A DNA stretch of 32,756 nt from Rhizobiaceae bacterium (GCA_016793565.1 JAEUMA010000569.1:1-32756), one strand, 5' to 3'; positions 14,304-27,060 are shown, numbered from the stretch's first letter. Notes: a model not told the origin generated them from the sequence alone. Program-made: numbers and translations.

Positions 14304-15398
14304 CTAGGCCAGCTTGCCGATCATGCCGGCCACGAACCAGTTCATGCCGCGGATATCCGGATCGGCCAGAACCGATCCGGCCGCCACCTTGACGTTGCCG
14401 TCCTGGTCCTTCAGTTCGCCGGCATAGGGATGGACCTTGCCACTGCCGATATCGGTCTCGAGCTGCTTGAGCTTGGCCACAACGTCAGCCGGGATCTGCT
14501 CGTTGTAGGGCGCCATCTTGACGATGCCGGCTGCCAGCCCGTCCCAGCGAACCTCCGGTTTCCAGGTACCGGCGGCCACCGCCTTAGCCGGCTCGACATA
14601 GTCGCGCGACCAGTCCAGCGTGAAGGCGGTGAGCTGCTTGCCGGAGCCGAAAGCCGCCATGTCGCTGGCGTAGCCGATCGACCACGCGCCGCCTTCGCCG
14701 GCGGTCTGCACGCCGGTCGCCGTGTCGGTCATGGAGCAGATGACGTCGCAGCCCTGCGACAGCAGCGTGTTGGCCGCCTCCTTCTCCTTGCCGGGATCGA
14801 ACCAGGAATTGAGGAACACGACGTTGCAAGTGGTGTCCGGCCGGACGCTCTGGGCGCCGAGCAGAAGCGCGTTGGCAGGGCCGACGATGTCGGGAATCGG
14901 GAAGCCACCGATGAAGCCGATCTTGCCGGACTTGGTCATGTGCCCTGCCGCGGCGCCAGCCACGAAGGTTCCTTCGTAGTACTTCGCCTCGAAGGTGCCG
15001 AGATTGGCCAGGTGGACGATGCCCGAACAGTGTTCGAAGGCGATGTCGGGAAAGCGCGGCGCGACCTTCTGCATTGGCGTTCCGTGCGAGAAGCTGGTAC
15101 CGAAGATCAGCTTGTTGCCGCTGCTGGCGAGCTGCGTGAAGACCCGCTCGGCATCCTGCGGCATGAAAATGTTGTCGATGATGGTCATCTCGACCTTGTC
15201 ACCGAACGCATCCTTGATCGCCTGCGCGCCAAGGCTGTGCTGCTTGGTCCAGCCGATGTCGGCGACGGGCGAGACATATACGACGCCCACCTTCAGCACC
15301 TCCTGCGCATGCGCCAGGCCTGCAAAGCCGCCGGTGGCGGCAGCGGCGCCAAGCGCGCCGGAGTATTTCAGGAAATCGCGTCTGGTCGTGTCGGTCAT
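14304..15398 (-). CDS. BMP-family ABC transporter substrate-binding protein with twin-arginine signal
   Basis: MTDTTRRDFLKYSGALGAAAATGGFAGLAHA is a Tat-type signal. The rest resembles the BMP/PnrA fold family: GFIGGFPIPDIVG, FLNSWFDPGKEKEAA. Confidence 0.85.
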   Translation of the reverse strand: MTDTTRRDFLKYSGALGAAAATGGFAGLAHAQEVLKVGVVYVSPVADIGWTKQHSLGAQAIKDAFGDKVEMTIIDNIFMPQDAERVFTQLASSGNKLIFGTSFSHGTPMQKVAPRFPDIAFEHCSGIVHLANLGTFEAKYYEGTFVAGAAAGHMTKSGKIGFIGGFPIPDIVGPANALLLGAQSVRPDTTCNVVFLNSWFDPGKEKEAANTLLSQGCDVICSMTDTATGVQTAGEGGAWSIGYASDMAAFGSGKQLTAFTLDWSRDYVEPAKAVAAGTWKPEVRWDGLAAGIVKMAPYNEQIPADVVAKLKQLETDIGSGKVHPYAGELKDQDGNVKVAAGSVLADPDIRGMNWFVAGMIGKLA

Positions 15399-15410: not shown

Positions 15411-16229
15411 CTAATGGTTGCCTTGGATTTCAGGCCCGTTCGCAAGCGCGGGCTCTTTTCTCTGTTTGTGGTCGTGGCGATGCGGCGCCGCGGTACTGCC
15501 ACGCGGCTGAGCCGTGGAATTCGTGGCGCCGTCCCGGGCGTCGGCAGGCGGCTCGGCGAGATAGGGCGCCAGCGCCTCGCGCGGCGTCATCTCCGGAAAC
15601 ACCTGCCGGTCCATGATGTAGCCTCGGACGACGGCGCGGTGATGCGTGTCGATCAGTTCCAGCGCCTTCTTGAGCCGGCCTTTCTCCAGCAGGTCGATCA
15701 GGCGTGCGTGGTCGTCCAAAAGGTTGCAGTAGTCAAAGTCGGCTGTGATCAGGGAGCGCAACAACGTCGTGCGCCGCGTTAGCTGCGCGTGAATCTCCTG
15801 CATCACCTTGTTGCGGGAGAGCCGCACGAAGACCGTATGAAACTCCTGCCCCAGGACATCGGCCAGTGCGTCGTTGTCCGCGGCTACCGCCTGGCGCTGG
15901 CGCTCCACATGCTGGCGCAGTTCCGCCCAGCCCGCAGGCCCGAGCCTGTCGGAGAGCTGCGCGGCCACGCCCTGTTCCACCAACGTCAGGGCGTCGTAGA
16001 TCTCGATCGCCTCCTGCATCCCCGGCCTGGCGACGAAGGCGCCGCGGTTGCGCTCGATCTGCGCCAGCCCATGGTCGGCCAGGCGAATGAGCGCCTGGCG
16101 GATGACGATGCGGCTGACGCCGAAAATCTCAGAAAGCTCGCGTTCGCCCAGCTTGCAGCCAGGCACCAGTCGATGATCGATGATGGCGCGCGTCAGCACG
16201 TCTGCGATCGCCTGGGAACGGTTGCTCAT
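15411..16229 (-). CDS. GntR-family (FadR/FCD-type) transcriptional regulator
   Basis: wHTH GERELSEIFGVSRIVIRQALIRLADHGLAQIERNRGAFV. I prefer the ATG at 16229 (MSNRSQAIADVL...) with GGAAGA upstream. The track start at 16328 has no SD. The stop lies 12 nt before the BMP binding-protein start. Confidence 0.8.
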   Translation of the reverse strand: MSNRSQAIADVLTRAIIDHRLVPGCKLGERELSEIFGVSRIVIRQALIRLADHGLAQIERNRGAFVARPGMQEAIEIYDALTLVEQGVAAQLSDRLGPAGWAELRQHVERQRQAVAADNDALADVLGQEFHTVFVRLSRNKVMQEIHAQLTRRTTLLRSLITADFDYCNLLDDHARLIDLLEKGRLKKALELIDTHHRAVVRGYIMDRQVFPEMTPREALAPYLAEPPADARDGATNSTAQPRGSTAAPHRHDHKQRKEPALANGPEIQGNH

Positions 16230-16391
16230 CGGTGCGGCGTCTTCCACCCGGACTGGCTTGATTTTATTCGGATTGCCCATGTTCAGGGCATCGTTGAACG
16301 TCGACATATCCCAGATTGCGACTTGCATATATCGGAATGCAACGTGCCAGTTCTGTCAATCAGGAAATAGAGTTTGTCCGGCAGAAAATCG

Positions 16392-16474: not shown

Positions 16475-17332
16475 ATGGCAGCGCCTTGCAGCGACCGCAT
16501 TCTCCTCGACGACTGGCATATCGTCGCCGATCGCGCCGTGCTGACCGAGGGCCGGCCCTTCGCATCGCGGCTGCTCGGCGTCGACCTCGAAGTGACAAGG
16601 CACGGCGACGACGCCGACGTTGTCTGCATTACGGGCGGGGCGCCGGTGCGAAGCCAGCAGCTCTACGGCTATATCTGGGCCTGCCTCGGCACGCCGGCGC
16701 GCGACATCGTACACCTGCCGGAAGCCTTCGAGGACGACCGCCACACGGTCACCGGCGGTTCGATCGCCGTAAAAGTGTCAGGCCTGCGCGCGGTCGAGAA
16801 CTTTCTCGACATGGGCCATTTCCCGTTCGTGCACACCGGCTGGCTGGGTGACGAGCCGCACACCGAGGTGCAGCCCTACAATGTCGAGATCACCGAGGCC
16901 GACGAGATTCTCGCCACCGACTGCAAGTTCTTCCAGCCGGTCGCTTCGCCGACGGCCAAGGGCGGGATGATGGTCGACTATATCTACAAGGTGATCCGGC
17001 CCTATACGGTGGCGCTCTACAAGAGCAATCCGCTGCAGCCCGGAAGGCTCGATTCCATAACGCTGTTCGTGCAGCCGGTGGACGAGGAGAACTGCATCGC
17101 CCATCCCTTCCTCTGCTACATCAAGGAAGGCATCGATGAGCCGACGATCCGCTGGTTCATGCAACTGATCTTCGCGCAGGACAAGCCGATCCTGGAGAAC
17201 CAGGTGCCCAAGCGCCTGCCGCTGGATCCTCGCGCGGAAACGCCGATCCGCGCCGACGCTGTCTCCGTCACCTACCGTCGCTGGCTGCGCGAGCGTGCCG
17301 TCACCTACGGCGCCATCCCCGCCGCCGCCTAA
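16475..17332 (+). CDS. Rieske-oxygenase-family catalytic (non-heme iron) subunit lacking Rieske cluster ligands, copy 1 (NdmC-like architecture)
   Basis: ATG with an AGGGA SD. Iron motif ENFLDMGHFPFVH (16796-16834) and the QDKPILENQ block are present. The N-terminal 72 aa have no CxH/CxxH pair. Confidence 0.8.
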   Translation: MAAPCSDRILLDDWHIVADRAVLTEGRPFASRLLGVDLEVTRHGDDADVVCITGGAPVRSQQLYGYIWACLGTPARDIVHLPEAFEDDRHTVTGGSIAVKVSGLRAVENFLDMGHFPFVHTGWLGDEPHTEVQPYNVEITEADEILATDCKFFQPVASPTAKGGMMVDYIYKVIRPYTVALYKSNPLQPGRLDSITLFVQPVDEENCIAHPFLCYIKEGIDEPTIRWFMQLIFAQDKPILENQVPKRLPLDPRAETPIRADAVSVTYRRWLRERAVTYGAIPAAA

Positions 17333-17371: not shown

Positions 17372-18271
17372 ATGACCAAATGCACCGACCGCGTGGTCCT
17401 CGATCTCTGGCATCCGTTGCAGGCTATCGCCGAGATGCCGGCCGGCCGTGTGCATGAGACGGTGCTGCTGGAGGAGCGCCTCGGCTTTGCGCGGGATGAG
17501 GCGGGCAATGCCGCCGTCTGGCGCGCGCGGCCGGATTTGCGCGCCGACGATGCGGTCGACATCGCGGCGGTGAACGACCGGCTGCCGGCCAAGGTCGCAT
17601 ACGGCTATGTCTGGTCCTCGCTCGGCAATCCGCCCGCCGATATCTTCCCGATCCCGGAATTCGCCGAGCCCGACCGGCGCCGGCTGAACGCCGCCACGAT
17701 GGGCGTCAACGTCTCGGCGCCGCGTGCCATCGAGAATTTTCTGGATATGGGCCACTTCCCCTATGTCCACACCGACATCCTCGGCGCCGAGCCGCACACG
17801 GAGGTGAAGGAATACGACGTCGAGGTTTCCGCCGACCGCGACGAGATTCTCGCAACGCGCTGCCGCTTCTTCCAGCCGATGGCCTCGACGGTTTCGACGG
17901 GCGGCGCCGACGTCGAATATGTCTACCGCGTGCCGCACCCGTTCTGCTCGGTGCTCTACAAGTCTAGCCCGGCCGACGAGAAGCGCATGGACGTGATCGC
18001 CATCTTCATCCAGCCCGTCGACCAGGAGCATATCCGCGCCCACATGATGCTGTGCGTTCTGGACTTCGACAACGAGGACAAGATCATAAAGCGCTTTCAG
18101 CAGACGATCTTCGGCCAGGACAAGCCAATCCTGGAAAACCAGTTCCCGAAGCGTCTGCCTCTCGATCCGCGTGCCGAGACGCCGATCCGTGCAGACAAAT
18201 CGGCGATCGCCTACCGCCGCTGGCTGAGCCAGAAGGGGTTGACCTACGGCGTCATCCCGGCCGCCGCCTGA
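17372..18271 (+). CDS. Rieske-oxygenase-family catalytic subunit lacking Rieske cluster ligands, copy 2 (tandem paralog)
   Basis: Strong GAAGGAGGAG SD. Iron motif ENFLDMGHFPYVH (17732-17770). Shares the identical block PKRLPLDPRAETPIRAD and the C-terminus YG(A/V)IPAAA with copy 1. Only one Cys (C4) occurs in the N-terminal 85 aa. Confidence 0.8.
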   Translation: MTKCTDRVVLDLWHPLQAIAEMPAGRVHETVLLEERLGFARDEAGNAAVWRARPDLRADDAVDIAAVNDRLPAKVAYGYVWSSLGNPPADIFPIPEFAEPDRRRLNAATMGVNVSAPRAIENFLDMGHFPYVHTDILGAEPHTEVKEYDVEVSADRDEILATRCRFFQPMASTVSTGGADVEYVYRVPHPFCSVLYKSSPADEKRMDVIAIFIQPVDQEHIRAHMMLCVLDFDNEDKIIKRFQQTIFGQDKPILENQFPKRLPLDPRAETPIRADKSAIAYRRWLSQKGLTYGVIPAAA

Positions 18272-18276
18272 TTTTT

Positions 18277-18379
18277 CTAAAGCGTGTTGCGTGAAAAAGG
18301 ATTCACGCAACACGCTTTAGGTATTTGATTTTGCGCATGTCTTTGTCCCGAAACCGGTTCCCACTTTCGGGAGACATGC
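18277..18379. repeat. Double-palindrome intergenic element (RIME-like); the first hairpin resembles a terminator
   Basis: Hairpin 1 has perfect 19-bp arms (18277-18295 and 18302-18320) and a 6-nt loop, followed by GTATTTGATTTTG. Hairpin 2 has a 7-bp stem (18335-18341 with 18373-18379) plus an 8-bp stem (18346-18353 with 18365-18372), with a 4-nt bulge and an 11-nt loop. It ends 3 nt before the AGGAG SD of the next gene. Confidence 0.6.
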
Positions 18380-18393
18380 TTTAGGAGACGACG

Positions 18394-20160
18394 ATGCCTG
18401 AACCCGACCGGAGCCGGTGGCACCCGATCGCCGCCTCGCACGATTTGCCTTTTCGCCACGTCTATCATGCGCAGCTTCTCGGCCGCGAGTTCGCGGTCTG
18501 GCGGGCCGACGATGGCTACGTCAATGTATGGGAGAACCGCTGCCTGCACCGCGGCGTCCGGCTTTCCATCGGCATGAACGACGGGCGCGAGCTGAAATGC
18601 CAGTATCACGGCTGGCGCTACGCCAACCGCACCGCCGGCTGCACTTACATCCCTGCCCATCCGGCCGACGCGCCGGCGCGCACCATCACCAACCGCACCT
18701 TTCCGGCGGTCGAGCGCTACGGCCTGGTCTGGTCGGCCGAAGAGCCGGTCGGCGAGGTGCCGGCGCTGGCGGGCGTCACCGAGGGGCGCCAGCTCGTGCT
18801 GCGTGGCATCCCGGTCAATGCGGCGGCCGAGGACGTGGCGGAGAGGCTGAGATCCTACCGCTTCCAGCCGAACGGCGCACTCGACGGCAAGGACGCAGAA
18901 GTGGCGCTGGAGGCGGCGTCGGATACGTCCGTGGCGCTGCGCTCCCGCGAGGCCGGCGCCGACACGCTGGCGGTCTTCTTCGTGCAGCCGGTTGATGCCG
19001 GCCGCTCGGTGATTCGAGGCGTGCTGGATGACGATGCCGAAGGTCCGCAGCGTATCGCGGTGATGAGGCACCACAACCGGCTGCTGTCCAAGCTACGCGA
19101 CGAGGCGGAGCGCGAGGCTGCTGGAAAGCCTGCGCCAGCGTCCATCGAGCCGGTCTATGAGCGCGTGTCGGCCGAACTGGCGGAGATGCCGGAGGTTACC
19201 CCGCATGGCCGCAAGGCGGCGCTGCGCGTCGAGGTGGCAAGAAAGTTCGCGGCCGCCGACGGCATCGCCGGATTCGAACTGAGGCCGATCAAGGGCCTGC
19301 TGCCGACCTTCCAGCCCGGCGCGCATATCGACGTCCATATGCCCAATGGCGAGATCCGCCAGTATTCCATCACAAATGGGCCGGGCGAGAGCGCCAGCTA
19401 TGTCATCGGCGTCAAGCTGGAGCCGGACTCCAAGGGCGGCTCGAAATGCATGCACGAGACCGTCCGCGAGGGCGACGTGCTGGCGATCTCGGAGCCACGC
19501 AACAATTTTCCGCTGCGTCGCGACGCGCTGAAGACACTGTTCATCGCCGGCGGCATCGGCATCACGCCGCTGCTTGCCATGGCGCAGGCGCTGCAGAACC
19601 AGCGGCTTGCCTTCGAACTGCACTATTTCGCGCAGAACGAGAGCCAGATGGCATTTCGCGACCGCCTGGCCGCGCTCGGTTCGTCACTCCGGCCGCATCT
19701 CGGCCTCGATCCGGCAGCCACCGGCGCCGAGTTGCGCCGACTGCTCCACGGCTACGAGGCAGGCCGGCAGGTCTATCTTTGCGGACCGGGGCCGATGCTG
19801 GAGGCAGCGCGATCGATCGCTGCGGAACTCGGCTGGCCGGATTCTTCCGTGCACTTCGAGTATTTCAAGAACACCAACACGATCGACGACAGCTCGAGCT
19901 TCGAGGTAGCGCTGGCGCGTTCGGTCATGACGCTACAGGTGCCGGCCGGCCGCACTATCCTGGAGGTCATCCGCGAGAACGGCATCGAGATGCCGTCTTC
20001 GTGCGAGCAGGGCGCCTGCGGCACCTGCCTCTGCACCGTCATCGAGGGCGAGCCGGACCATCAGGACGTCTATCTCAACGACGCCGAGCGGCGCGCGGGG
20101 ACAAAGATCCTCACCTGCGTGTCGCGCTCCAAGTCGCCGCGCCTGGTGCTGGATCTGTGA
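18394..20160 (+). CDS. Fusion protein: N-terminal Rieske [2Fe-2S] domain, degenerate oxygenase-core remnant, and PDR/VanB-type reductase (FMN, NAD, plant-type [2Fe-2S]); NdmD-like architecture
   Basis: CLHRG-x14-CQYHGW at 18541-18609 (CxH-x16-CxxH spacing). RQYS, GGIGITPLLAM and YLCGPGPM motifs. CEQGACGTCLC...C at 20002-20118. AGGAG SD 6 nt upstream of the start. Confidence 0.85.
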   Translation: MPEPDRSRWHPIAASHDLPFRHVYHAQLLGREFAVWRADDGYVNVWENRCLHRGVRLSIGMNDGRELKCQYHGWRYANRTAGCTYIPAHPADAPARTITNRTFPAVERYGLVWSAEEPVGEVPALAGVTEGRQLVLRGIPVNAAAEDVAERLRSYRFQPNGALDGKDAEVALEAASDTSVALRSREAGADTLAVFFVQPVDAGRSVIRGVLDDDAEGPQRIAVMRHHNRLLSKLRDEAEREAAGKPAPASIEPVYERVSAELAEMPEVTPHGRKAALRVEVARKFAAADGIAGFELRPIKGLLPTFQPGAHIDVHMPNGEIRQYSITNGPGESASYVIGVKLEPDSKGGSKCMHETVREGDVLAISEPRNNFPLRRDALKTLFIAGGIGITPLLAMAQALQNQRLAFELHYFAQNESQMAFRDRLAALGSSLRPHLGLDPAATGAELRRLLHGYEAGRQVYLCGPGPMLEAARSIAAELGWPDSSVHFEYFKNTNTIDDSSSFEVALARSVMTLQVPAGRTILEVIRENGIEMPSSCEQGACGTCLCTVIEGEPDHQDVYLNDAERRAGTKILTCVSRSKSPRLVLDL

Positions 20161-20167
20161 GGGCTGC

Positions 20168-20815
20168 ATGATCACGCTCTACGACTACGAACTCTCCGGC
20201 AATTGCTATAAGCTGCGTCTGTTGATGAGCATGCTGGGCGTCAAGTACAAGGCGGTGCCGGTCGACTTCTATCCCGGCCGCGAGCACAAGTCGGAGTGGT
20301 TCCTGGCGATCAACCCGCTCGGCCAGCTGCCCGTCATCGAGGATGACGGCCTGATACTGCGCGACGCGCAGGCGATCCTCGTCTATCTGGCGGCCAGATA
20401 TGATCCGTCGAAAAAATGGTATCCCGTCGACGACCCGAAAATGCTGGGCGAGATCGGGCAGTGGCTGGCCTTCGCAGACGGTATCACCAGCACCTCCTCC
20501 GCCGCCCGCCTGCATGACGGCCTGTTCTATGATTTCGATGTCGACGCCGCGCGTGCAGGCGCGCACCGGCTCTTCCGCATCCTTGACGAACACCTTTGGT
20601 TCGGCGAGCAGGAAGGTCGCGAATGGATATGCTCCGCGCCGCACCCAACGGTCGCCGACATAGCCTGCTTCCCCTACATCATGCTATCGGAAGAAGGGGG
20701 TATCCCGAGACAGGACTATTCTGCCATCCGCCGCTGGTGCGACCGCGTCAAGCGCATCGATGGCTTCGTGGTAATGTCCGGCGTCTTCCCCGCGAGCCCC
20801 GCAAGGGCCGCCTGA
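20168..20815 (+). CDS. Glutathione S-transferase family protein (possible NdmE-like structural subunit)
   Basis: 215 aa. N-terminal thioredoxin-like GST fold (LSGNCYKLRLLMSMLGVKY, INPLGQLPVIEDDGLILRDAQAILVYLA). Starts 7 nt after the reductase stop. Confidence 0.85.
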   Translation: MITLYDYELSGNCYKLRLLMSMLGVKYKAVPVDFYPGREHKSEWFLAINPLGQLPVIEDDGLILRDAQAILVYLAARYDPSKKWYPVDDPKMLGEIGQWLAFADGITSTSSAARLHDGLFYDFDVDAARAGAHRLFRILDEHLWFGEQEGREWICSAPHPTVADIACFPYIMLSEEGGIPRQDYSAIRRWCDRVKRIDGFVVMSGVFPASPARAA

Positions 20816-20879
20816 ACATTGAAATCCAACGACCGGCCGGCCGCGGCCCGCCGGCAATCCGCATCTGGAGGTATTGCCC

Positions 20880-22007
20880 ATGAAGACCCGTGCCGCCGTC
20901 GCCGTCGCAGCCGGAAAACCGCTGGAAATCATGGAAGTCGACCTCGAAGGGCCGAAGGCCGGCGAGGTTCTCATCGAGGTGAAGGCGACAGGCATCTGCC
21001 ATACCGACGAGTTCACGCTGTCGGGTGCGGATCCGGAAGGGCTGTTCCCGGCTATCCTGGGTCATGAGGGCGCCGGCGTCGTGGTGGACGTCGGTCCAGG
21101 CGTGACCAGCGTCAAGAAGGGTGACCACGTCATCCCTCTCTACACGCCGGAATGCCGCCAGTGCCCGTCCTGCCTGTCGCGCAAGACAAACCTCTGCACG
21201 GCGATCCGCGCCACCCAGGGCCAGGGCTTGATGCCGGACGGCACCAGCCGCTTCTCCATCGGTAAGGACAAGATCTTCCACTATATGGGCTGCTCGACCT
21301 TCTCTAACTTCACCGTGCTGCCCGAGATCGCCGTCGCCAAGGTCAATCCCGACGCGCCCTTCGATACGATCTGCTACATCGGCTGCGGCGTCACCACGGG
21401 CGTCGGCGCCGTGTTCAACACCGCCAAGGTCGAGCAGGGCGCCACCGCCGTGGTGTTCGGCCTCGGCGGAATCGGCCTTAACGTCATCCAGGGCCTCAAG
21501 CTCGCCGGTGCCGACATGATCATCGGCGTCGACCTCAACAACGACAAGAAGGCTTGGGGCGAGAAGTTCGGGATGACGCATTTCGTCAACCCGAAGGAGA
21601 TCGACGGCGATATCGTTCCGCATCTTGTCAACATGACCAAGCGTGGCGCCGACCAGATCGGCGGCGCCGACTACACGTTCGACTGCACCGGCAACGTCAA
21701 GGTGATGCGCCAGGCGCTGGAGGCCAGCCATCGCGGCTGGGGCCAGTCGATCGTCATCGGCGTGGCCGGCGCCGGCCAGGAGATTTCCACCCGGCCGTTC
21801 CAACTGGTCACCGGCCGCGTCTGGAAGGGCACCGCCTTCGGCGGGGCGCGCGGCCGCACCGACGTGCCGCGCATCGTCGACTGGTATATGGACGGGAAGA
21901 TCCAGATCGACCCGATGATCACGCACCGGCTGACCCTTGACGAGATCAACAAGGGTTTCGACCTCATGCATGCGGGAGAGTCGATCCGCAGCGTGGTCGT
22001 CTACTAA
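20880..22007 (+). CDS. frmA: S-(hydroxymethyl)glutathione dehydrogenase / class III alcohol dehydrogenase
   Basis: The track start at 20874 is a TTG. The ATG at 20880 has a GGAGG SD 8 nt upstream. Near-collinear with E. coli FrmA as remembered: [54 protein letters not shown]. Confidence 0.92.
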
Positions 22008-22077
22008 CCGGCCGCGCCGCAAAAACTAGCGCATTCGACAAACGCGACTGAACGCCATTGGAAAGGGAGGAACTGCC

Positions 22078-22650
22078 ATGGCCAACGTCTCGATCCACCC
22101 CGCCGTCGACGGCGGGGTGAAGAAGGGCAGCGCAAGCTTCGCCGGCGGCACGCTGGTTTGCCTTTGCGCCAGCAAACCGGTGAAGGTCAAGGTCAAGGGC
22201 AACGTCGCCCACGACCATGCCTGCGGCTGCACCAAATGCTGGAAGCCGGAGGGGGCGATCTTCTCCGTGGTAGCGGTGGCGGCGACCGGCGATGTGACGG
22301 TGACCGAGAACGGCGACAAGCTGAAAGTGGTCGATCCGAGCGCTCTGATCCAGCGTTACGCCTGCACCGGCTGCGGCGTGCACATGCACGGGCCGGTCGA
22401 GCGCGACCATGCCTTCAAGGGCTTGACCTTCGTGCATCCGGAACGTTTCCAGGAATCCGGCTGGGCCGAGCCCGGCTTCGCGGCTTTCGTCTCCTCGGTG
22501 ATCGAGTCCGGCGTCGACCCGAGCCGCATGGACGGCATCCGTGCACGGCTGAAGGAACTGGGGCTGGAGCCTTATGACTGCCTCAACCCGCCGTTGATGG
22601 ATTATCTGGCGACCTTCGCGGCCAAAAAGTCCGGCGCGCTCAAGGCCTGA
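22078..22650 (+). CDS. gfa: S-(hydroxymethyl)glutathione synthase (glutathione-dependent formaldehyde-activating enzyme)
   Basis: 190 aa with an AAGGGAGGAA SD. Matches Paracoccus Gfa as remembered: [56 protein letters not shown]. Confidence 0.9.
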
Positions 22651-23713: not shown

Positions 23714-24769
23714 GTGTTTTTGCCAACCGATCATTCCAAGGTCCGCACCGAACTGCCGCGCGGCTGCACCTTCGATGAACGGGACTGGCATATCCTGGCA
23801 GGCTTCTGGCATCCCGTCGCCTTCGCGCATGACATCGCCGACAGCCCGGTGAGGGCGCGTCTGCTGGACGTCGACCTGGTCATCTACCGCACGGCGCAAG
23901 GGATCACGGTTGCCCGTGACCTCTGCCCGCATCGCGGAACCCGCATCAGCGCCGGCTGGATAAAGGACGACAGCCTCGTCTGTCCCATGCACGGGCTGGA
24001 ATTCGGGCATGGCGGTACCTGCACAAAGATCCCGTCCGTTGCCAACTCACAAGGCCGCATACCGCCCAAGCTCCGGCTGCAGACCTGTCTGTCGCAACTG
24101 CGCTACGGAATCGTTTGGGCTTGCCTCAAGCCGGAGCCGATCTGGCAGCTTCCGGAGTGGGAGGGCATCGGCAACCCGGATCTGCGCAATGTCTACGTGC
24201 CGAACGGCACCTGGTATGCCTCGGCCAGCCGTCATGTCGAGAACTTCAACGACGTGGCGCACTTCCCCTTCGTGCACACGAAGAGCTTCGGCGGCAGCCC
24301 AGCGGAGCCCATACCGCCCTACGACGTCGAGCACACCGATTTCGGCCTTCGCTTCGCCTTCCCCTACCACGAGGGCTTCAACCGGTTCCCCGACGGCGTG
24401 CCGGGCACGGAGCGCGATGTCGTCTACACCTACGAACTGACCTTTCCGTTCTCGACGATCATCAAGATCGCTCCGGTGGGCTCCGACTACGTCAACTATT
24501 TCGCGGACACGGTGTGCCCCGTCTCGGCGCGAGAGACGCGCATCTTCCAGGTGATGACCGACACCACCGGCGATCCGGATGACGAGCACTGGATCAAGGA
24601 TGCCCTCCTCATCAACGACGAGGACAAGCCGATGGTGGAGGAGCAGCGGCCGGAGGAACTGCCGCTCGACCTGACCGAAGAAATCCATATCCCGTCCGAT
24701 CGGATGTCGCTCGAATATCGCCGCGCTCTTGCGAAGAAATTCGGCCTCGGCGCTCCAATTTCAAGCTAG
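23714..24769 (+). CDS. Rieske non-heme iron oxygenase alpha subunit with intact Rieske domain (VanA/NdmA-class monooxygenase/demethylase type)
   Basis: GTG start with a GGGAG SD 7 nt upstream. Rieske motif CPHRG-x14-CPMHG (23924-23992). Iron motif ENFNDVAHFPFVH. NDEDKPMVEEQ block. Confidence 0.85.
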   Translation: MFLPTDHSKVRTELPRGCTFDERDWHILAGFWHPVAFAHDIADSPVRARLLDVDLVIYRTAQGITVARDLCPHRGTRISAGWIKDDSLVCPMHGLEFGHGGTCTKIPSVANSQGRIPPKLRLQTCLSQLRYGIVWACLKPEPIWQLPEWEGIGNPDLRNVYVPNGTWYASASRHVENFNDVAHFPFVHTKSFGGSPAEPIPPYDVEHTDFGLRFAFPYHEGFNRFPDGVPGTERDVVYTYELTFPFSTIIKIAPVGSDYVNYFADTVCPVSARETRIFQVMTDTTGDPDDEHWIKDALLINDEDKPMVEEQRPEELPLDLTEEIHIPSDRMSLEYRRALAKKFGLGAPISS

Positions 24770-24790
24770 CCGCAACTGGGGATATTTGAG

Positions 24791-26059
24791 ATGTCGCTGA
24801 TGCCGACCGGTCTGAACCAGATGGCACCCGCGCCCGGTGCGCCGGCCGGCGCATTTTGGGGCACGCCATTCCATTCCGCTACCGCAGCGCACAACAAAAC
24901 GACCTGGTGGTACGCCTGGGACAAATACGTCATTCCCGACGCCTACACGGACATGCCCTCCGAGTTGCGCGCCATCCGCGGCGCCGCGGCGCTCATCGAC
25001 ATGTCTCCGTTGCCGAAGATGGAAATCGCCGGACCGGAGGCGCACCGCCTCGTCAACCGTCTGATGACCCGTGACCTGTCGGCCATCGCGGTCGGGCAGG
25101 CGATGTATGCGCCTTGGTGCAACGAGCACGGCCTGCTGATCGGCGACGGCTTGGTTTTCCGCAGCGAGGAGCAGCGCTTCATCATTTCAGGCGAGGCCAG
25201 CCATGCGTGGTTCGCGGCCAATGCCACCGGGCTCGACGTCCAAGTCCGCGACGTGTCGGACGAGTTCGGCGTGCTTTCGCTGCAAGGGCCACGCGCCTTC
25301 GACGTGCTGGCGGCGGCCACCGGGCGCGACTGGTCGGCGCTGAAGTTCTCGGCCATGGCCAGGGCGCGGATCGCCGATGTGGATCTGTTCGTTGCGCGGC
25401 AGGGGTTCACCGGCGAACGCGGCTTCGAACTATGGGTGCCGCGCGACGGCGGTGCGGCGGTGTGGAACGTGGTCTACGAGGCCGGCGAGAAGTTCGGCAT
25501 CAGGCCGGCAGGCGAGTATGCAGTGGACGTCGCGCGCGTCGAGGCCGGGTTAATCCTGGTCTCCGCCGACTATACCGGCGCCGGTCCCGATCAGCGTTGC
25601 GCCCACGTCCAGGTCGCTGCCGACCTGACTGTCACCCCCTATCAGGCAGGGCTGGGCAAATTCGTCGATCTCGGCCGCGATTTCGTCGGCCGCGACGCTC
25701 TGGCACGCGAGCAGGGCGGCCCGCAAAACGGCCGCCGCCTGGTCGGGCTGCGCTACGACGCCGCCGAGATCCTTCGGCTAGCCGCCGCCAACAGCGCGCT
25801 GGGTACGGCACTATCGCGCGTCTACTGGGGTTCCATGACGGCATGGAAGGACGGGGCTGTCGTCGGCCGGGCGTCCAGCCTGTGCTTCAGCCCGACGCTG
25901 CGCCGCGCCATCAGTTTCGGGTTCCTGCCGGGCGATCTGGCTGAGCCGGGCGCATCGGTCGACGTGGAGATGAAGGACGATAGCGGGACTGGCATCGGTC
26001 TGGTGTGCGCGGAGGTGACGCGTCTGCCCTTCGTGGAGCTCAAGCGATCGAGCGGATGA
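24791..26059 (+). CDS. GcvT-family aminomethyltransferase-like, folate-binding protein
   Basis: 422 aa. Family blocks ELRAIRGAAALIDMS, FGVLSLQGPRA, ARQGFTGERGFELW, VDVARVEAGL. Confidence 0.8.
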   Translation: MSLMPTGLNQMAPAPGAPAGAFWGTPFHSATAAHNKTTWWYAWDKYVIPDAYTDMPSELRAIRGAAALIDMSPLPKMEIAGPEAHRLVNRLMTRDLSAIAVGQAMYAPWCNEHGLLIGDGLVFRSEEQRFIISGEASHAWFAANATGLDVQVRDVSDEFGVLSLQGPRAFDVLAAATGRDWSALKFSAMARARIADVDLFVARQGFTGERGFELWVPRDGGAAVWNVVYEAGEKFGIRPAGEYAVDVARVEAGLILVSADYTGAGPDQRCAHVQVAADLTVTPYQAGLGKFVDLGRDFVGRDALAREQGGPQNGRRLVGLRYDAAEILRLAAANSALGTALSRVYWGSMTAWKDGAVVGRASSLCFSPTLRRAISFGFLPGDLAEPGASVDVEMKDDSGTGIGLVCAEVTRLPFVELKRSSG

Positions 26060-27060
26060 ACGCGCATAGTCCTTCCTCGGCGGGCACCGGGACGGCCGCG
26101 GAAGGGACATCCCAGCGCATGAGCTTGCGTCTTTCGGGCAAGACGGAATGCGCCGAGGGCATCGCCGCCTTCGAACTGGTCGATCCGTTGGGGCGCGATC
26201 TGCCAGTTTTCATGGCGGGCGCGCATCTCGACGTTCATCTGCCGAACGGGATGGTGCGCCAGTATTCGCTGCGCAATGCGCCCGCCGAACGCCACCGTTA
26301 CTGCCTCGGCGTGCTGCGCGAGCCGTATGGCCGCGGCGGCTCGGCCGCCATGCACGGCCTGGCCGCCGGCGATACGGTCGAGGTCGGCATGCCGCGCAAC
26401 AATTTTGTCCTGGAAGAGAACGCGCCGGTCTCGCTCCTCGTCGCCGGCGGCATCGGCGTGACGCCGCTCCTAGCCATGGCGCATCGGCTGACCGAACTAG
26501 GCCGCGACTTCACCTTCCACTACGCCGCGCGCAGCGCGGCGCGCATGGCGTTTCGCGAAGAGATCGAAGCCTCGGCCTTTGCGCATCGGGCACATTTCCA
26601 TCTCGACGACGGACCGGGAGACCAGCGTCTCGACCTTGAGGCGATCGCCTCCGCCGGGCGGCCCGGGGCCAGGCTCTATGTCTGCGGGCCGTCCGGCTTC
26701 ATGGACGCGGTGATCGACGCCGCACGTCGCGGTTGGCCGGAGGAGGCGATCCGGCGTGAATATTTTGCCGCCGCGCCGATCACGCGACGGGACGCAGATG
26801 ATGCCTTCCGCGTACGGCTGGCGCTGAGCGGGCGCAGCCTGGAGGTGCCGGCCGGCTGCACCATCGTCGAGGCGCTGGCGGCGATCGGCCTTGAGGTGCC
26901 GACCTCGTGCGAACAGGGCATCTGCGGCACTTGCGTGACGAAGGTGCTGTCGGGCACGCCGGATCATCGCGACCTGGTGCTGACCGATCGCGAGCGCGCC
27001 GATCGCATGACGCTCTGCTGTTCGCGCGCATTGAGCGACGAAATCGTGCTGGAGCTTTGA
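26056..27060 (+). CDS. PDR/VanB-family oxidoreductase (FMN, NAD, plant-type [2Fe-2S])
   Basis: The ATG at 26056 overlaps the GcvT-like stop (ATGA). A later ATG (MSLRLSG...) is possible. RQYSL, GGIGVTPLLAMA, YVCGPSGFM and CEQGICGTC...C motifs. Confidence 0.85.
   Translation: MNAHSPSSAGTGTAAEGTSQRMSLRLSGKTECAEGIAAFELVDPLGRDLPVFMAGAHLDVHLPNGMVRQYSLRNAPAERHRYCLGVLREPYGRGGSAAMHGLAAGDTVEVGMPRNNFVLEENAPVSLLVAGGIGVTPLLAMAHRLTELGRDFTFHYAARSAARMAFREEIEASAFAHRAHFHLDDGPGDQRLDLEAIASAGRPGARLYVCGPSGFMDAVIDAARRGWPEEAIRREYFAAAPITRRDADDAFRVRLALSGRSLEVPAGCTIVEALAAIGLEVPTSCEQGICGTCVTKVLSGTPDHRDLVLTDRERADRMTLCCSRALSDEIVLEL

Follow-up and report, generated by a model that had tools for sequence, protein, structure and literature searches.

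A frmA-gfa Formaldehyde Module Behind the GST Gene of a Putative NdmCDE-Type Rieske Oxygenase Operon in a Rhizobiaceae Bacterium

The NdmCDE N7-demethylase of Pseudomonas putida CBB5 (Summers et al. 2013, reviewed in PMC4408171) is built from a catalytic subunit that lacks a Rieske domain, a reductase that bears an additional one at its N-terminus, and a third subunit resembling a glutathione S-transferase (GST), NdmE, which is required for the solubility and activity of the complex (PMC4408171) and for which a non-catalytic role has been proposed (PMC4408171, PMC13237722). In CBB5, frmA and frmB flank the ndm genes, to which the Klebsiella clusters group closest, and homologues of ndmCDE with unknown function were noted in 2013, mainly in Sinorhizobium and Mesorhizobium (PMC4408171). 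Here we describe a cluster of this kind on contig C272 of a Rhizobiaceae bacterium, a stretch of 32,756 nt that is referred to below as the window. As a preliminary description of the sequence had it, the reductase gene is followed on the same strand by genes for a GST, for S-(hydroxymethyl)glutathione dehydrogenase (frmA) and for a member of the S-(hydroxymethyl)glutathione synthase family (gfa); the open reading frames (ORFs), the family scores and the gaps of 7, 64 and 70 nt bear this out, and these gene identities, their order and their spacing are direct observations. We consider it likely that the segment serves two distinct functions, probably from one transcript, with the GST being a subunit of the oxygenase and frmA-gfa an accessory formaldehyde module at the 3′ end of the operon.

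The window encodes two tandem paralogous catalytic subunits (48% identity to each other), which are 47.6% and 47.4% identical, respectively, to the 281-aa NdmC-like protein of Klebsiella plasmid CP024507. The best PDB matches of catalytic subunit 2 are SxtDIOX/SxtT (∼1e-28) and NdmA (1e-13). The reductase matches phthalate dioxygenase reductase (4e-64) and the C-terminal fragment of NdmD (6icm_D, 7e-19), and shares 36% identity along its entire length with the 585-aa NdmD-like protein of Klebsiella. Besides this Rieske-reductase and the 281-aa Rieske-less subunit, the Ndm-type cluster on the Klebsiella plasmid encodes an NdmA/B-like Rieske oxygenase and a 212-aa GST, and genes for a purine permease and a GntR regulator are close by. 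On the basis of domain content, the window cluster is assigned as an NdmCDE-type split Rieske monooxygenase, in which the Rieske cluster resides on the reductase and neither of the two catalytic subunits carries one, and it belongs to the rhizobial group of ndmCDE homologues named in PMC4408171. As in CBB5, genes for glutathione-dependent formaldehyde metabolism stand beside the cluster. Unlike CBB5, the window has two catalytic paralogues in tandem, a Bmp-type ABC importer and a GntR regulator, and its frmA-gfa pair lies directly behind the GST gene, whereas frmA and frmB are flanking genes in CBB5. The similarity to CBB5 is gauged through the Klebsiella plasmid homologue and the solved NdmD fragment only. 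The cluster design, its association with frmA/frmB in CBB5, and the existence of rhizobial homologues (PMC4408171) are thus already known; new here are the frmA-gfa variant of the appended module, the linkage statistics, the homogenized frmA paralogues and a hint from Acidimicrobiia on the GST.

Formaldehyde Genes Attached to the Cluster

Both genes behind the GST are bona fide members of their families. FrmA scores 598.1 bits against TIGR02818 (curated equivalog cut-off, 543.95) and covers model positions 1–368, while Gfa reaches 315.3 bits against TIGR02820 (cut-off, 234.55) and 327.2 bits against NF003829 (cut-off, 249). These are the only copies of frmA and gfa above the cut-offs in the assembly, which is fragmented (4.25 Mb in 769 contigs) and 92.7% complete. 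Two segments at contig ends, C540:6-662 and C718:5816-6283, were considered as a second FrmA and rejected; they are halves of one divergent class III-like alcohol dehydrogenase (52% and 43% identity to FrmA) that falls below the cut-off. The preliminary description found no gene for the last enzyme of the pathway, S-formylglutathione hydrolase (frmB/fghA). That is correct for the window, but the enzyme is not missing from the genome: the single match to TIGR02821 in the assembly, at C565:1614-2435, scores 455 bits against a cut-off of 281.7 and directly establishes the presence of fghA, which completes the glutathione-dependent formaldehyde pathway at the genome level. Compared with the region downstream of fghA in Mesorhizobium loci, the surroundings on C565 have nothing in common except fghA itself, and the neighborhood is unrelated. 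The same three enzyme families (Gfa, FlhA and FghA) carry out glutathione-dependent formaldehyde oxidation in Paracoccus denitrificans, where the gfa and dehydrogenase genes are likewise adjacent; there the pathway serves methylotrophic growth, whereas the window genes are attached to a demethylase-type operon. Both genes stand directly behind the oxygenase genes, as the earlier proposal that Gfa and FrmA together yield S-formylglutathione had it; the part assigned to Gfa is less secure, as catalysis by Gfa is disputed (PMC4682968).

We compared the window with 80 related loci from Alphaproteobacteria and Acidimicrobiia that were found through the reductase. The reductase tree puts the window together with Phyllobacteriaceae, for example Nitratireductor and Mesorhizobium, to which protein identity is ∼80%. 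Among the 75 loci with enough sequence, frmA directly follows the GST gene in 41, mostly with gaps of 54–68 nt. Mapping this linkage onto the reductase tree takes at least 10 changes, six of them forced by well-supported branches, so that it must have arisen or disappeared more than once. Like the gene order, these counts are observed directly. The window FrmA is 87–94% identical to the GST-following copies of its Phyllobacteriaceae and Rhizobiaceae relatives and 73–79% identical to those in more distant loci. Within the 41 loci, 17 contigs end inside frmA; where frmA is complete, it is followed by fghA in 15 loci, by gfa in one and by some other gene in eight. The frmA-gfa form behind a GST is thus found in the window and in a single metagenome-assembled genome (L022).

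The closest arrangement is the GST-frmA-fghA form of Mesorhizobium and Aminobacter (e.g., L020, L028, L032 and L045), which shares with the window the order Bmp, GntR, both catalytic subunits, reductase and GST at 74–89% identity and has frmA 54–68 nt behind the GST gene. It differs in that fghA follows frmA, whereas in our genome gfa follows frmA and fghA is on another contig, and in that the genomes concerned hold one or two frmA copies in addition to the cluster-linked one, whereas the window genome has one canonical frmA. A third form, in Primorskyibacter, has frmA and fghA separated by 3 nt; its fghA product is 49% identical to that of the window genome, and the arrangement looks independently built. 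In Primorskyibacter marinus PX7, the entire locus, comprising a Rieske oxygenase, a reductase, a Bmp protein, a catalytic subunit, the Rieske-reductase, GST, frmA and fghA, occurs on four scaffolds (L086–L089) with identical frmA DNA, representing either a multi-copy island or an assembly artefact. In Kumtagia ephedrae (L030:9998-11806), 334 nt without a frmA gene separate the GST gene from fghA, and the locus looks like a GST-frmA-fghA form that has lost its frmA. Finally, Mesorhizobium sp. L-8-3 (L101:7612-10289) carries a frmA-gfa pair 24 nt after the VanB-type reductase gene of another oxygenase cluster, so that a formaldehyde module is joined to an oxygenase operon there, too.

Complete relatives carry two to three copies of frmA. 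A DNA tree of these paralogues (L100–L105, L028, L032 and L045, from genomes G001–G004) groups them by genome and not by location, which indicates recent duplication, gene conversion or concerted evolution; the 17 contigs that break off within frmA point the same way. Homogenization of this kind could be the force by which fghA and gfa replace each other downstream of frmA. Because the paralogues group by genome, the tree gives no separation with respect to whether the window frmA is nearer to gfa-linked or to cluster-linked copies.

The preliminary description read the gene content as added support for a demethylase, and the comparison strengthens that argument. The linkage recurs, it does so in the forms frmA-fghA, frmA-gfa and frmA alone, some of them apparently built independently, and CBB5 offers a precedent in its frmA/frmB flank (PMC4408171); a reaction that releases formaldehyde is therefore supported. 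Such support is valuable, given that the solved structures closest to the catalytic subunits are those of hydroxylases. The repeated and varied attachment of formaldehyde-oxidation genes provides independent genomic evidence for a demethylase over a hydroxylase, and narrows the substrate search for rhizobial NdmCDE-like clusters.

From the protein families and the CBB5 precedent, the following chemistry can be proposed. A methylated compound would be imported, and the GntR regulator would be relieved. The Bmp transporter, the NdmA-like neighboring oxygenase described below and the purine permease of the Klebsiella cluster suggest by analogy that this compound is purine-like. Electrons would pass from NADH to the flavin, the ferredoxin cluster and the Rieske cluster, all on the reductase, and on to the mononuclear iron of the Rieske-less subunits, with the GST-like protein holding the oxygenase complex together. 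Hydroxylation of an N-methyl (or O-methyl) group would give a product that collapses with loss of formaldehyde, which would combine with glutathione, spontaneously or aided by Gfa, to S-hydroxymethylglutathione. FrmA would oxidize this adduct to S-formylglutathione, from which FghA, encoded on C565, would release formate and glutathione.

Transcription of the GST-frmA-gfa Segment

The statement that no convincing terminator separates these genes proved accurate. A consensus scan finds no plus-strand site in any of the three gaps (reductase-GST, GST-frmA and frmA-gfa), and the only terminator-like site on that strand in 20160-22650 is a weak 7-bp stem within the gfa coding region, at 22141-22157. 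Over 12 kb, the scan returns 14 sites, versus 7.1 ± 2.6 in shuffled sequences. The 64-nt spacer between GST and frmA folds into a short GC-rich hairpin, and comparable hairpins recur in related spacers. No sigma-70-like promoter is called in this spacer with a consensus of the E. coli type only. Each of the three genes has a Shine-Dalgarno site, which for frmA is a GGAGG located 7 nt upstream of the ATG.

A contrasting picture is seen with frmA copies that stand alone. In five of the five stand-alone copies from relatives (L100, L102, L103, L104 and L105, of Mesorhizobium and Aminobacter), AAACCTGAAA, with one mismatch allowed, occurs 38–58 nt upstream of the start, often with TTGA some 15–20 nt before it. 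This element may be a promoter or operator of the formaldehyde response in these relatives. It is absent from all 39 distinct related spacers of cluster-linked copies and from the window spacer, and the cluster-linked copies therefore lack whatever signal the motif provides, which favors read-through into them from the oxygenase operon. Nor is AAACCTGAAA found anywhere in the genome of the window, and it therefore cannot mark a formaldehyde regulon there. Considering the spacing, the terminator scan and the motif distribution together, we infer with somewhat better than even confidence that GST, frmA and gfa are co-transcribed with the oxygenase operon.

Several points weigh against this conclusion, or against the roles that we assign. 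An internal promoter is possible, within either the GST gene or the 64-nt spacer. Upstream, the gap between the catalytic genes and the reductase gene holds a 122-nt repeat element. The same gap has a median of only 25 nt in relatives, and the element is for that reason taken as an insertion; further copies are present on other contigs, one of them 97% identical (C280:462-561) and weaker ones on C139, C656 and C147. The consensus scan marks within it a strong terminator-like site at 18276-18321, a hairpin with a perfect 20-bp stem and a T-rich tail, which could separate the catalytic genes from reductase-GST-frmA-gfa. The element may thus attenuate transcription into all four genes. Furthermore, SxtT and SxtDIOX, the closest solved relatives of the catalytic subunits, are hydroxylases and not demethylases, and the GST retains an invariant Ser10 together with most hallmarks of a glutathione site. 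Finally, since the assembly holds no other canonical frmA-gfa pair, this one must double as the general defense against formaldehyde, and its regulation may be geared to that task.

This last point leads to the alternative that survives best, though we consider it improbable: frmA-gfa would be a housekeeping locus for the detoxification of formaldehyde or S-nitrosoglutathione, with its own formaldehyde-responsive promoter, placed beside the oxygenase by a chance rearrangement and of little bearing on the oxygenase reaction. In its favor, in addition to the single canonical pair, stand-alone frmA-gfa pairs exist elsewhere in the genomes of two relatives (G002 and G003), fghA is unlinked, and the clustering of frmA paralogues by genome means that gene conversion or recombination could reshuffle their flanks. 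However, a chance neighborhood sits poorly with a frmA-GST linkage that is seen in more than half of the loci, spans several families and takes at least 10 changes on the tree, or with the Mesorhizobium sp. L-8-3 pair behind a different oxygenase reductase gene. The spacer of merely 64 nt, the absence from the window of the upstream motif of stand-alone copies, and the CBB5 precedent (PMC4408171) argue in the same direction. We favor the reading of frmA-gfa as a module appended to the oxygenase operon.

The GST-Fold Partner

The assignment of the GST is supported by both fold and context. The protein matches 158 GST chains in the PDB at E ≤ 0.001, with 3m3m as the top hit (4e-19), and its gene adjoins those for a reductase with an extra Rieske domain and for Rieske-less catalytic subunits. 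The reductase stop at 20160 and the GST ATG at 20168 are separated by 7 nt, with a GAGGG Shine-Dalgarno sequence overlapping the stop, an arrangement in which the GST is probably translationally coupled to the reductase. The GST gene directly follows the reductase gene in 79 of the 80 related loci, the exception being a locus whose sequence breaks off there. The gap has a median of 10 nt and does not exceed 20 nt in 54 of 67 loci. Mean column identity is 78% for the GST, higher than for the catalytic subunit (75%) and the N-terminus of the reductase (68%). Over 210 aa, the window GST shares 57.6% identity with its counterpart in the Klebsiella Ndm-type cluster, a protein that is used here as a proxy for NdmE and is not NdmE/Gst9 itself. 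In a large protein search, the matches listed include homologues with 79–93% identity, all of them annotated only as "glutathione S-transferase", and a literature search on gst13 in Sinorhizobium found nothing.

The preliminary description had listed the GST under formaldehyde capture, while allowing for either a catalytic protein or a purely structural, NdmE-like subunit. We favor the reading as an NdmE-type partner forming the third, fixed subunit of the split oxygenase, because the gene stays with the reductase in 79 of 80 loci irrespective of frmA and is kept in Acidimicrobiia in which gshB and GshF go undetected. By analogy with what has been proposed for NdmE, its role is most likely one of scaffolding or solubilizing rather than glutathione chemistry.

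The Acidimicrobiia deserve description in their own right. The Rieske-reductase and GST pair is present in loci L079, L085, L090 and L092. In the four cluster-bearing genomes, three of which are complete chromosomes, searches for glutathione synthetase (gshB, TIGR01380) and for GshF (TIGR01435) return no match, while the Mesorhizobium control is recovered at 416 bits; the genes could still be present despite the lack of a match, and glutathione could be taken up from outside. The same genomes contain MshC-like genes at ∼400–420 bits. A GST-fold partner is therefore conserved in organisms that probably do not use glutathione, with Ser10, Pro55 and Asp66 unchanged and no frmA behind it. The comparative evidence leans toward a role independent of glutathione, and does so moderately, for the two reasons just given. 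That the GST persists in bacteria that appear not to make glutathione is relevant to what NdmE-type proteins do, although neither this nor the demethylase argument alters the known picture in kind.

The serine noted earlier in the LSGNCYK stretch is confirmed: the stretch spans residues 9–15, and the serine is Ser10. It is invariant in 75 of 75 GST homologues, as are Asn12, Cys13, Lys15, Arg17 and Pro55, the last of which occupies the cis-Pro position. The usual Glu-Ser pair that binds glutathione is Asp-Ala in the family of the window GST and Glu-Ser in the Klebsiella homologue; the Asp (Asp66) is invariant in an alignment of 41 rows, with Glu at that position in Klebsiella, and the Ser is replaced by Ala in at least 90% of the family. 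The conserved residues alone do not settle whether the role is catalytic or structural. A predicted complex of the GST with catalytic subunit 2 and the N-terminus of the reductase is likewise non-discriminating, as a control with a swapped catalytic subunit also scored high.

A catalytic GST, binding glutathione beside the oxygenase active site and either trapping nascent formaldehyde or handing S-hydroxymethylglutathione to FrmA, so that GST, Gfa and FrmA form one capture line, could appeal to the invariant residues, to Asp66 among the aligned relatives, to the canonical pair in Klebsiella and to the frmA that immediately follows the GST gene in over half of the loci, but we judge it very unlikely, given that the GST is equally conserved in the 34 of 75 loci where frmA is absent, is kept in Acidimicrobiia, has lost the Ser of the pair and resembles a protein for which a non-catalytic role has been proposed in the literature (PMC4408171, PMC13237722). 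Just as doubtful is the related notion, drawn from the retention of Ser10, Pro55 and (in close relatives) Asp66, that NdmE-type GSTs might keep a working thiol-binding pocket, catch the formaldehyde of demethylation at its source and pass it to a downstream FrmA. If true, this would account for the dependence of a Rieske oxygenase on a GST.

Neighboring Genes

The features of the window that are discussed here are collected in Table 1.

Table 1. Coordinates of the Oxygenase Cluster, the Formaldehyde Genes and Adjacent Features in the Window
Feature	Position	Strand	Family matches and remarks
Window, contig C272 (Rhizobiaceae bacterium)			Longest contig of the assembly
Bmp/PnrA-family ABC substrate-binding protein	14304..15398	-	Pfam Bmp 2.8e-42; TAT_signal (TAT signal)
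GntR/FCD-family regulator	15411..16328	- (divergent from oxygenase genes)	Pfam GntR 9e-17, FCD 1.4e-14
Rieske-less oxygenase catalytic subunit 1 (NdmC-like)	16475..17332	+	VanA_C alone, 3.7e-19
Rieske-less oxygenase catalytic subunit 2 (NdmC-like paralogue)	17372..18271	+	VanA_C 3.1e-21
Inserted repeat element, 122 nt	18272..18393	+	Between catalytic genes and reductase gene
NdmD-type reductase	18394..20160	+	Pfam: N-terminal Rieske 4e-17; FNR-like module (NAD_binding_1); plant-type 2Fe-2S, Fer2 9e-16
GST-fold protein, NdmE-type partner, 215 aa	20168..20815	+	Pfam GST_N_3 9e-16, GST_C_2 3e-06
GST-frmA spacer	20816..20879	+	Short GC-rich hairpin, no T tail; GGAGG Shine-Dalgarno site
S-(hydroxymethyl)glutathione dehydrogenase FrmA, class III alcohol dehydrogenase	20880..22007	+	TIGR02818
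Gfa, S-(hydroxymethyl)glutathione synthase family	22078..22650	+	TIGR02820, NF003829

The Bmp gene is the first of a divergent ABC importer that extends to ∼10682. In most of the 80 related loci this gene stays in synteny with the cluster, its product being 71–87% identical to its counterparts, and the GntR/FCD regulator likewise keeps its position across the related loci. On the other side, a convergent AraC-family gene lies 3′ of gfa and, by ORF coordinates, overlaps its 3′ end by 11 nt.

Beyond the AraC-family gene is a second module with an intact Rieske oxygenase, for which NdmA is the best PDB match (1.7e-39), a GcvT-like protein, a VanB-type reductase and a second Bmp transporter. The gene for the GcvT-like folate-binding protein is located between those for the NdmA-like oxygenase and the reductase (23714-27060), and in NCBIfam this protein best matches the C-terminal portion of trimethylamine N-oxide demethylase. 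This arrangement suggests that formaldehyde from the second module may be captured via tetrahydrofolate, beside the glutathione route of the first.

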